The position numbers were made by a program, and so were the translations under genes. The notes under the pieces were generated by a model. It was not told where the DNA came from and did no database searches. It was given only the letters and a program-made list of their open reading frames with translations. This document shows positions 1-13,773 of a DNA stretch of 64,000 nt, in pieces. This DNA is from Escherichia coli (GTDB lineage Bacteria; Pseudomonadota; Gammaproteobacteria; Enterobacterales; Enterobacteriaceae), in NCBI RefSeq assembly GCF_045037415.1, contig NZ_CP173438.1; one strand, 5' to 3'. Position 1 is the first letter of the stretch. Each line of letters starts with the position of its first letter.

Positions 1-903
1 CGCTCAGACATTACGGTGACAGAATGGCTTGATAAATATATTTCTATCCAAGAGGACAGGCTGCAACATAATGAACTAAGACCCAACTCCTATCGGCAAA
101 AAGGCAAACCCATTCGTCTTTTCCGTGAGCATTGTGGAATGCAACACCTCAAGGATATTACCGCACTTGATATTGCCGAAATAATTGATGCTGTAAAGGC
201 TGAAGGTCATAACAGGATGGCGCAAGTCGTGAGAATGGTGTTGATCGACGTCTTCAAAGAAGCACAACACGCAGGACATGTTCCGCCAGGATTTAACCCA
301 GCGCAGGCAACAAAACAACCGCGAAATCGAGTAAACCGCCAAAGATTGTCACTGCCCGAATGGCAGGCAATATTTGACAGCGTAAGCAGACGGCAGCCCT
401 ATTTAAAATGCGGCATGCTACTTGCTCTTGTTACTGGACAACGTTTAGGCGATATCTGCAATTTGAAATTCTCTGATATATGGGACGACATGTTGCACAT
501 TACTCAGGAAAAAACCGGTTCAAAACTTGCTATTCCGCTTAACCTGAAATGCGATGCTCTGAATATTACCCTTCGTGAAGTTATATCTCAGTGCAGGGAT
601 GCTGTTGTTAGTAAATATCTGGTCCATTACCGTCACACTACCTCTCAAGCAAACAGAGGAGACCAGGTTTCTGCAAATACTCTGACAACGGCTTTTAAAA
701 AGGCCCGGGAAAAATGTGGCATAAAATGGGAGCAAGGAACTGCGCCCACATTTCATGAGCAGCGATCTCTGTCAGAACGGTTATATCGGGAACAGGGTCT
801 GGATACGCAAAAGTTGTTAGGCCATAAATCCAGAAAAATGACCGACCGATACAATGATGATCGTGGTAAAGACTGGATTATCGTAGATATCAAAACAGCA
901 TAG
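1..903 (+). CDS. int: Lambda-family tyrosine integrase, 5'-truncated by the window edge (frame open to position 1)
   Basis: Translation ends ...HEQRSLSERLYREQGLDTQKLLGHKSRKMTDRYNDDRGKDWIIVDIKTA, closely paralleling the lambda Int C-terminus including the catalytic Tyr in the RY(N/R)DDRG motif and the HxxR box. No in-frame stop between position 1 and the GTG at 16. Confidence 0.85.
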   Translation, partial: RSDITVTEWLDKYISIQEDRLQHNELRPNSYRQKGKPIRLFREHCGMQHLKDITALDIAEIIDAVKAEGHNRMAQVVRMVLIDVFKEAQHAGHVPPGFNPAQATKQPRNRVNRQRLSLPEWQAIFDSVSRRQPYLKCGMLLALVTGQRLGDICNLKFSDIWDDMLHITQEKTGSKLAIPLNLKCDALNITLREVISQCRDAVVSKYLVHYRHTTSQANRGDQVSANTLTTAFKKAREKCGIKWEQGTAPTFHEQRSLSERLYREQGLDTQKLLGHKSRKMTDRYNDDRGKDWIIVDIKTA

Positions 904-913
904 AAAATAGCCA

Positions 914-950
914 GTTTTGGGGAAGGGTTTTGGGGAAAGTTTTGGGGAAG
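914..950. repeat. Three tandem direct repeats GTTTTGGGGAAGG / GTTTTGGGGAAAG / (G)TTTTGGGGAAG between int stop and icd terminator
   Basis: Read directly from the sequence: head-to-tail copies with 13-bp periodicity immediately downstream of the int stop codon. Confidence 0.85.
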
Positions 951-970
951 ATTTTACATCATCATAAAAC

Positions 971-993
971 AACGGGCGTGTTATACGCCCGTT
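971..993. terminator. Hairpin AACGGGCGTGTTATACGCCCGTT; likely rho-independent terminator for icd (minus strand), possibly bidirectional
   Basis: Perfect 9-bp stem with a T-rich tract following on the minus strand (TTGTTTTAT), about 25 nt downstream of the icd stop. Confidence 0.55.
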
Positions 994-1016
994 TCAATAT
1001 TTAACACATGTAGTGA

Positions 1017-2267
1017 TTACATATTCTTGATGATCGCGTCACCAAACTCTGAACATTTCAGCAGTTTAGCGCCTTCCATCAGACGTTCGAAGTCATAGGT
1101 TACGGTCTTGGCATTGATTGCGCCTTCCATACCTTTAACAATCAGGTCAGCCGCTTCAGTCCAACCCATATGGCGCAGCATCATCTCAGCGGAGAGAATA
1201 ATAGAGCCTGGGTTTACTTTGTCCTGTCCGGCATATTTCGGCGCAGTACCGTGGGTGGCTTCAAACAGGGCGCATTCGTCACCGATGTTTGCGCCAGGGG
1301 CGATACCGATACCACCAACCTGCGCTGCCAGGGCGTCAGAAATGTAGTCACCGTTCAGGTTCATACAGGCGATAACATCATATTCAGCCGGACGCAGCAG
1401 GATCTGTTGCAGGAATGCATCAGCAATCACGTCTTTAATGACGATCTCTTTGCCGGTATTCGGGTTTTTAACTTTCAGCCACGGGCCGCCGTCGATCAGT
1501 TCACCGCCAAATTCTTCACGCGCCAGTTGGTAGCCCCAGTCTTTAAACGCGCCTTCGGTGAACTTCATGATGTTGCCTTTGTGCACCAGGGTCACAGAGT
1601 CACGATCGTTAGCAATTGCGTATTCGATCGCTGCACGAACCAGACGTTTGGTGCCTTCTTCCGAACACGGCTTAATACCGATACCGCAATGTTCCGGGAA
1701 GCGAATTTTCTTCACGCCCATCTCTTCACGCAGGAATTTAATCACTTTCTCAGCGTCGGCAGAGTCTGCTTTCCATTCGATACCCGCATAAATGTCTTCC
1801 GAGTTTTCACGGAAGATAACCATATCGGTCAGTTCAGGGTGTTTAACCGGGCTTGGAGTGCCCTGATAGTAACGTACCGGACGCAGGCAGATGTAGAGAT
1901 CCAGTTCCTGGCGCAGGGCAACGTTCAGAGAGCGAATACCGCCACCAACCGGAGTGGTCAGCGGGCCTTTAATGGCAACGCGATATTCACGAATCAGATC
2001 AAGGGTTTCAGCAGGCAACCAGACGTCCTGACCATAAACCTGTGTGGATTTTTCACCGGTGTAAATTTCCATCCAGGAGATTTTACGCTCGCCTTTATAG
2101 GCTTTCTCGACTGCAGCGTCGACCACTTTCAGCATGGCTGGGGTTACATCTACACCGATTCCATCACCTTCAATGTAAGGGATAATCGGATTTTCAGGAA
2201 CGTTGAGTTTGCCGTTTTGCAGGGTGATCTTCTTGCCTTGTGCCGGAACAACTACTTTACTTTCCAT
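1017..2267 (-). CDS. icd: Isocitrate dehydrogenase (NADP)
   Basis: 416-aa [41 protein letters not shown]..., full-length match to the E. coli Icd sequence known from memory. Confidence 0.97.
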
Positions 2268-2438
2268 TCACCTCTCCTTCGAGCGCTACTGGTTTGCTCG
2301 TCTGCCACCACGTTGCATATGCGTTTGCGTCCTGCGATACGGATGCTTTAGAGCAATTTTTTGTTAATGATTTGTAATTAGCTTGTCAATACTACCCTAT
2401 TGTTTGCCGTCATGAAAGATGCGCGTTATTAGGCTATA

Positions 2439-3092
2439 ATGCGGCAATTCATAATCTCTGAAAATACCATGCAAAAAACTTCTTTTAGAAATCACCAGGT
2501 TAAGCGATTCAGCTCGCAACGTTCTACCAGGCGTAAACCTGACAACCAGCCCACGCGTGTGATCCTGTTCAATAAACCCTACGATGTTCTTCCGCAGTTC
2601 ACCGATGAAGCCGGACGCAAAACATTAAAAGAATTCATCCCGGTTCAGGGGGTGTATGCGGCAGGTCGTCTCGACCGCGACAGCGAAGGGTTACTGGTGC
2701 TGACCAATAACGGCGCGTTGCAGGCGCGTTTAACCCAGCCGGGTAAACGCACCGGAAAAATCTATTATGTGCAGGTGGAAGGTATTCCCACACAAGACGC
2801 ACTTGAAGCCTTGCGCAATGGCGTAACCTTAAATGATGGCCCTACCCTGCCCGCAGGCGCGGAGCTGGTTGAAGAACCCGCGTGGTTATGGCCGCGGAAT
2901 CCACCAATTCGTGAGCGCAAAAGTATTCCCACCAGCTGGCTGAAGATCACCTTATATGAAGGACGTAATCGCCAGGTGCGCCGCATGACCGCCCATGTTG
3001 GTTTCCCCACGCTGCGACTGATTCGCTATGCGATGGGGGATTACTCTTTGGATAATCTTGCCAATGGCGAATGGCGAGACGCGACAGATTAA
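2439..3092 (+). CDS. rluE: 23S rRNA pseudouridine2457 synthase
   Basis: 217-aa ORF, divergent from icd as in E. coli; pseudouridine synthase family sequence. Confidence 0.9.
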
Positions 3093-12945: not shown

Positions 12946-13773
12946 GTGATTGTCACTATTGTCGGTTGGCTTGTGTTGTTTATCTTTCTGCCCAACCTGA
13001 TGATCATTGGCACCAGCTTTTTGACCCGCGACGACGCCAGTTTCGTCAAAATGGTCTTTACGCTGGATAACTACACGCGTCTGCTCGATCCGCTCTATTT
13101 TGAAGTGCTATTGCACTCGCTGAATATGGCGCTGATCGCCACCCTCGCCTGCCTGGTGCTGGGCTATCCTTTTGCCTGGTTTCTGGCGAAGCTGCCACAC
13201 AAGGTGCGTCCGCTGCTGCTGTTTCTGCTGATTGTTCCGTTCTGGACCAACTCATTGATTCGTATTTACGGGCTGAAAATTTTCCTCAGCACCAAAGGCT
13301 ATCTCAACGAGTTTTTGCTCTGGCTGGGCGTTATCGATACACCAATTCGCATCATGTTCACGCCTAGTGCGGTGATTATCGGTCTGGTTTACATTCTGCT
13401 GCCGTTTATGGTGATGCCGCTGTACTCCAGTATCGAAAAACTGGATAAGCCGTTGCTTGAGGCGGCGCGCGATCTCGGTGCCAGCAAGTTGCAGACCTTT
13501 ATTCGCATCATTATCCCACTGACGATGCCGGGAATTATTGCCGGATGTCTGCTGGTGATGCTGCCAGCGATGGGCCTGTTCTATGTGTCCGACCTGATGG
13601 GCGGTGCGAAAAACCTGCTGATCGGTAACGTCATCAAGGTACAGTTCCTCAATATTCGTGACTGGCCGTTTGGTGCAGCCACCAGCATTACGCTGACTAT
13701 CGTAATGGGCCTGATGTTGCTGGTTTACTGGCGCGCTTCTCGTTTGCTGAATAAGAAGGTGGAACTCGAATGA
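12946..13773 (+). CDS. potB: Spermidine/putrescine ABC transporter permease
   Basis: Polytopic membrane protein overlapping the potA end; GTG start at 12946 gives 275 aa, alternative ATG at 12916 gives 285 aa. Confidence 0.88.
   Translation: MIVTIVGWLVLFIFLPNLMIIGTSFLTRDDASFVKMVFTLDNYTRLLDPLYFEVLLHSLNMALIATLACLVLGYPFAWFLAKLPHKVRPLLLFLLIVPFWTNSLIRIYGLKIFLSTKGYLNEFLLWLGVIDTPIRIMFTPSAVIIGLVYILLPFMVMPLYSSIEKLDKPLLEAARDLGASKLQTFIRIIIPLTMPGIIAGCLLVMLPAMGLFYVSDLMGGAKNLLIGNVIKVQFLNIRDWPFGAATSITLTIVMGLMLLVYWRASRLLNKKVELE

Follow-up and report, generated by a model that had tools for sequence, protein, structure and literature searches.

The icd locus and the adjoining integrase gene

The window, i.e., the whole stretch of 64,000 nucleotides of Escherichia coli DNA analyzed here, begins inside the gene of a phage-21-type tyrosine integrase (int) that is convergent with icd and lies 113 nt downstream of it (Table 1). 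The portion of int contained in the window covers the C-terminal ca. 300 codons and shows 100% nucleotide identity to the full-length copy of E. coli SK1144, where the gene encodes a protein of 380 aa annotated as site-specific integrase. This full-length integrase carries the arm-binding and catalytic domains of the lambda type (Pfam Arm-DNA-bind_1, 1.8e-28; Phage_integrase, 8.9e-24) and is identical to phage 21 Int at 377 of 380 positions (99%), compared to 60% identity with IntE of the e14 element. Downstream of int, the three arm-type dodecamers are adjacent exact copies and the sole matches to TTTTGGGGAARR within the 64-kb window. Their position agrees with the annotation of phage 21 record OL657228.1 ("attP consists of 3 subsites P1P2P3; consensus YYTTCCCCAAAA"), and the far arm of the corresponding prophage in SK1144 holds one more copy of the YYTTCCCCAAAA dodecamer (SK1144 segment L002, 10645-10656). 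The stretch from 904 to 963 as a whole is shared without change by each of the five free phages that were aligned. Closer to icd, a terminator-like hairpin at 971-993 with nine pairs (six of them G-C) and the tail GTTTTATGAT lies where the phage 21 record has an annotated "terminator". Beyond icd, the host side continues with rluE, nudJ, mnmA, hflD, purB, and phoPQ, the same as in other E. coli.

Table 1. Features at the int-icd junction (window coordinates)
Feature	Position	Strand	Remarks
phage-21-type tyrosine integrase gene (int), 3' part	1..903	+	truncated by window start; ORF 16..903
three tandem arm-type integrase-binding dodecamers TTTTGGGGAARR	915..951	+	int-proximal arm of attR; phage 21 annotation
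phage-supplied icd 3' UTR and intrinsic terminator	964..1016	-	stem-loop 971-993, then T-run
icd	1017-2267	-	intact ORF, 416 aa
phage-supplied icd 3' coding end	1017..1170	-	codons including ...AIIKNM and stop; 4A7/Perceval alleles
putative crossover zone (core) TGGCGCAGCA	1171..1180	.	last phage-host homology; four-way att comparison
host-derived icd 5' 1087 nt	1181..2267	-	0 differences from prophage-free ST131 strain 2822

An ORF of 393 aa on the plus strand antisense to icd (1170-2351) arises mechanically from the codon structure of icd, a gene with high expression, and is not a gene of its own. Scanning window positions 1-3000 against Rfam returned no family at the gathering score and no C0293-like sRNA, and a promoter scan of positions 850-1250 gave a single weak match that does not exceed chance expectation.

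Free phages and the recombination site

Searching window positions 1-1300 against 50,697 phage records, we found matches to 29 records of Escherichia phages. Where free phage genomes end at attP, the match spans window positions 1-1180 and ends exactly at 1180, with identities over this stretch of 99.1% for 4A7, Perceval, and 3W, 99.0% for Lambda_4C10 and 1W, 98.9% for ev207, 98.6% for ev017, and 98.3% for phage 21 itself; none of the records that terminate at attP matches anything to the right of 1180-1181. For a group of 1H12-like phages, the match ends at 1175 owing to two core substitutions. The core of 1H12 (record L009, equivalent to 1171-1180) reads TGGCGCTGAA instead of TGGCGCAGCA in a phage with an integrase of the same family, and the match of around eleven related "Lambda_ev" records to the window also extends no further than 1175.

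The phage 21 record is annotated in the order of excisionase, tyrosine integrase, attP subsites, terminator, and a 165-nt "ICDH-like" pseudogene, and in free phages the window-type icd 3' segment (icd') is contiguous with the same int gene. The icd' copies nearest to the window are those of 4A7 and Perceval with two coding differences each, compared to nine for phage 21, and the stretch at 964-1016 has no difference at all from phages 4A7, Perceval, and ev207. Across the attP regions of phages 21, 4A7, ev207, ev017, 1H12, and Perceval, the icd' copies are mosaics: ev017 combines the alleles native to ST131 at 1110, 1149, and 1152 with the allele of the phage type at 1170, T1149 and G1170 occur in ev207, and T1149 and G1152 in phage 21. 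This mosaicism suggests that host and phage copies have exchanged sequence repeatedly.

We compared the sequences on both sides of the exchange at all four att sites. The attP of 4A7 reads ...CCCATATGGCGCAGCA on the left and GTATATAAAAAC on the right, attB of an empty ST131 site ...CCCATGTGGCGCAGCA and TCATCTCAGCGG, attR in the window ...CCCATATGGCGCAGCA and TCATCTCAGC, and attL at the far end of the SK1144 prophage ...CCCATGTGGCGCAGCA and GTATATAAAAAC. Recombination of attP with attB thus yields the observed attL and attR, and a single reciprocal exchange fits this four-way comparison. The core TGGCGCAGCA is identical in attP, attB, attL, and attR, an A/G marker at 1170 segregates with the arm on the int side, and 1180 is the last homologous position. 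Because the marker at 1170 stays with its own arm, the exchange would fall within TGGCGCAGCA at 1171-1180, and the exact cleavage positions would likewise lie in this core. On the far (P) arm, the match is to 4A7 and not to phage 21.

The earlier note on this locus had given the span of the replaced segment as 1017-1200. The gene's tail has indeed been replaced, but the coding part of the replacement is the 164 nt from 1017 to 1180, where homology ends, and phage-derived DNA also extends to the left via the 3' UTR, the terminator, the arm sites, and int up to window position 1.

The displaced tail and the empty site

Window positions 1-2400 are 100% identical to many chromosomes of the ST131 type, including those of SK1144, JJ1887, O25b:H4, and SaT040, and two copies of the icd tail are present in 30 of 30 such genomes among the matches listed. 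It is in these other genomes, identical over 1-2400, that the prophage body and the displaced icd fragment are seen, the window itself beginning inside int. In SK1144, the DNA to the left of int forms a lambdoid prophage of ca. 50 kb whose modules cover recombination, immunity, replication, lysis, head, and tail. At its far end, a truncated pseudogene annotated as "isocitrate/isopropylmalate dehydrogenase" sits beside ymgL/ycgX. This displaced icd fragment (L002 10362-10525) aligns with the window from the terminator (ca. 964) to 1180, beyond which the sequences are unrelated, and it encodes the same amino acids as the in-gene tail, E398 and K414 included, except for the first codon at the junction. 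The cargo of the SK1144 icd prophage (L001 1-20000 and L002 10530-40001) is virulence-associated and comprises iss, an ompC-like porin gene, a 3.9-kb inverse autotransporter gene, and sitABCD, of which the last adjoins the far att site in the icd prophage of ST131-type genomes.

An attB sequence of 1246 nt was reconstructed by fusing L002 9900-10525, which holds the displaced fragment with its flank, to window positions 1181-1800. A total of 25 prophage-free genomes with a single copy contain the reconstructed site without interruption at 100% identity, among them strains 2822 and 5392, both labeled O25b:H4-ST131, and in prophage-free strain 2822 icd directly follows ymgL. Since the reconstructed empty site is intact in prophage-free genomes, the far-end fragment is the native tail of icd and the in-gene tail is the import.

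The genome of the window is not that of SK1144; the two are 99.993% identical over the first 13.8 kb, but the window lacks a second prophage at potB/potC. In SK1144, this second lambdoid prophage of ca. 44 kb lies between potB and potC with an integrase gene of its own beside potC. We looked for a second gene-end replacement at potB/potC of the window and found no prophage there, with potB continuous into potC. When placed on the window, the two flanks of the SK1144 potB/potC prophage have 14 bp in common (13748-13761), probably the empty attB core of this phage.

At the level of the population, the integration site in icd is heavily used. Of 5426 complete E. coli genomes, 1660 have the arrangement of int plus icd at a coverage of at least 80%, and the 3' 184 bp of icd match 7349 places in 5425 genomes, i.e., ca. 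1900 extra copies, with the best place at only 90-95% identity in 2235 genomes. By comparison, the 5' 1087 bp occur practically once per genome (5433 places in 5425 genomes, never more than two in any one), and their best places all reach at least 95% identity, the weakest of the rows sampled being at ca. 98%. The 3' end is therefore far more variable than the remainder of the gene across the 5425 genomes, in agreement with the notion that it is often polymorphic. Both this polymorphism and the heavy use of the site were reportedly described in 1997 by Wang, Whittam and Selander and by H. Wang et al., and the homology in attP is said to have been given as ca. 209 bp by Wang et al. in that year.

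Origin of the icd 3' end

As reference for substitutions, we used icd of the prophage-free O25b:H4-ST131 strain 2822. The window differs from it at four positions, 1110 (G/C), 1149 (A/T), 1152 (C/G), and 1170 (A/G), and all four differences are synonymous; the two Icd proteins are identical and both annotated as WP_000444487.1. Small as this coding signal of four substitutions is, they all fall into the last 164 nt as opposed to none in the remaining 1087 nt (Fisher p = 2.9e-4), which is the confinement to the icd 3' end that had been proposed as a check for a replaced segment. Another eight differences from prophage-free ST131 lie at 964-1016, composed of seven substitutions at 994-1015 and one 1-bp indel. 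At 12 of 12 diagnostic sites, the window has the allele of 4A7/Perceval and the far-end fragment of SK1144 has the allele of prophage-free ST131, including C, T, G, and G at 1110, 1149, 1152, and 1170, respectively.

The phage match up to 1180, the displaced native tail, the empty site, and the clustered substitutions together bear out the earlier note's main proposal of a prophage-supplied icd 3' end. We are nearly certain that window positions 1-1180 are the int-proximal end of a lambdoid prophage with phage 21 specificity, that the sequence from 1181 onward belongs to the host, and that the tail of icd was supplied by the phage. With regard to the window's own genome, we infer that the element is still complete and still excisable.

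Could the same pattern have arisen by ordinary allelic variation, that is through point mutations or homologous recombination with a different icd allele of E. coli, the integrase gene alongside being a coincidence? The icd gene is known to be recombinogenic, and icdC of K-12 (L004 16540-16900) shares 10 of the 12 diagnostic alleles with the window, including G1110, A1149, C1152, and A1170, which demonstrates that this type of allele exists in host chromosomes. Indeed, the cassette borne by the phage resembles an icd allele of the K-12 type that was carried into an ST131 host, and from the sequence of the tail taken by itself, apart from the junction, phage origin and allelic recombination would be indistinguishable. 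Yet the identity to phages is unbroken from int to the coding tail and stops where the homology between attP and icd stops, the native tail is displaced in the same genomes, and the differences end exactly at the att core, all of which makes allelic variation highly improbable as an explanation. A reversed assignment, with the in-gene stretch 1017-1180 as the native one and the far-end fragment as the phage-borne one, would be compatible with the protein sequence, which cannot discriminate between copies that encode the same residues except for the junction codon, but is refuted beyond practically any doubt: it is the far-end fragment and not the in-gene tail that equals prophage-free ST131 at all 12 diagnostic sites and that is contiguous with ymgL and ycgX exactly like the empty site, while the version in the window is contiguous with int in free phage genomes. 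An e14-like defective prophage instead of a phage-21-type element as the source of the segment is just as firmly refuted despite the use of the same attB boundary by e14, whose annotated left end in MG1655 maps to window position 1181, because the integrase shares 99% identity with phage 21 Int but only 60% with IntE, because the e14 copy has 12 differences in 164 coding positions and 17 more in 964-1016 and encodes D398 where the window encodes E398, and because the identical genomes carry a full lambdoid prophage of ca. 50 kb and not a remnant of 15 kb.

The earlier note had also pointed out, correctly, that K-12 Icd differs from the protein encoded here by D398 and E414 (in MG1655) in place of E and K, which are the only two protein differences. 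Its suggestion that E398 and K414 might be the signature of the replacement, however, does not hold, given that the protein of prophage-free ST131 strain 2822 is identical and that the displaced native fragment has codons for E and K as well. These residues occur alike in the tail borne by the phage, in the displaced native one, and in prophage-free ST131, and they are uninformative with regard to replacement. K-12 is a misleading reference for the tail of icd because e14 sits in the icd gene of K-12: the tail supplied by e14 encodes D398, D410, and E414, whereas the native icdC encodes E398, E410, and E414, so the D398 of K-12 stems from the e14 copy. E414, judging from its presence in both icd and icdC of K-12, is the allele of that lineage.

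The same tail replacement by e14 in K-12 goes back to Hill et al. 1989 as summarized in PMC6379469, and a preprint (bioRxiv 10.64898/2026.06.14.732165) agrees with this account of e14 and icdC. Published support for the icd arrangement is second-hand and stems from PMC6379469, PMC12803456, and this preprint. Like the element described here, e14 has inserted at the same position in icd, provides a replacement 3' end, and has left the native end behind as the icdC pseudogene on its far side. Unlike the silent swap observed here, the e14 copy alters the protein (D398 and D410 compared to E and E in icdC), and e14 is a remnant of 15 kb with ymfD, ymfE, and lit between icd and int.

Coliphage 21 and its relatives 4A7, Perceval, ev207, and ev017 share with the window an Int of 99% identity, the same endpoint of icd homology, and the same core TGGCGCAGCA, with a common order of xis, int, three YYTTCCCCAAAA arm sites, terminator, an icd' segment of 164-165 nt, and the core. 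The NC-SV prophage of the AIEC strain NC101, compared with the window by description, is another close known system; its sRNA svsR is reported to lie at the 3' end of cI, i.e., outside the window. Elements that regenerate the 3' ends of tRNA genes, such as DLP12 at argU, similarly carry in attP a copy of the 3' end of their target so that the gene survives insertion (PMC6379469). The segment carried by DLP12 is 47 bp long compared to ca. 215 bp here, and, unlike for integrators into tRNA genes, the target is protein-coding, so that reading frame, stop codon, and terminator must be preserved.

The attP of the phage carries the end of the icd transcript in ca. 215 bp (164 coding nt, stop codon, 3' UTR, and terminator), flanked by the arm-type sites for Int binding on one side and the crossover core on the other. 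Int would recombine within TGGCGCAGCA, where this homology has its edge toward the interior of icd. The first 1087 nt of the host's icd are thereby joined to the phage tail to leave a gene that is both intact and terminated, while the host's own tail is moved by ca. [quoted passage not shown] Insertion into a gene of an essential pathway is tolerated because attP supplies a working spare tail, and in the ST131-type lineage the swap amounts to four synonymous changes and a 3' UTR altered at eight positions. The terminator may also shield int from convergent transcription of icd, and the native tail should return once Int and Xis excise the prophage.

An attR junction of the phage 21 type within icd is a textbook arrangement. 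The present analysis fixes the boundary of the prophage at window position 1180/1181, which aids correct annotation and little more. The last 164 nt of icd and the 3' UTR are unfit for phylogeny and should not be read as host mutations. What we take to be the Achtman MLST primers for icd both match exactly (1390-1408 and 2239-2267), and since the amplicon (1390-2267) lies wholly in host-derived icd, MLST allele calls are unaffected by the phage tail. More speculatively, and improbable in our view, the exchange of the entire icd 3' UTR from stop codon to terminator (seven substitutions at 994-1015), together with the convergent int, might alter stability, termination, or 3'-UTR-based regulation of the icd mRNA and so tune the flux through the TCA cycle in lysogens. 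The same improbable reading has phages of this type shuttling 3' alleles of icd from one E. coli lineage to another, as suggested by a cassette that agrees with K-12 icdC at 10 of 12 diagnostic sites and by attP copies that are mosaics of host-like alleles.
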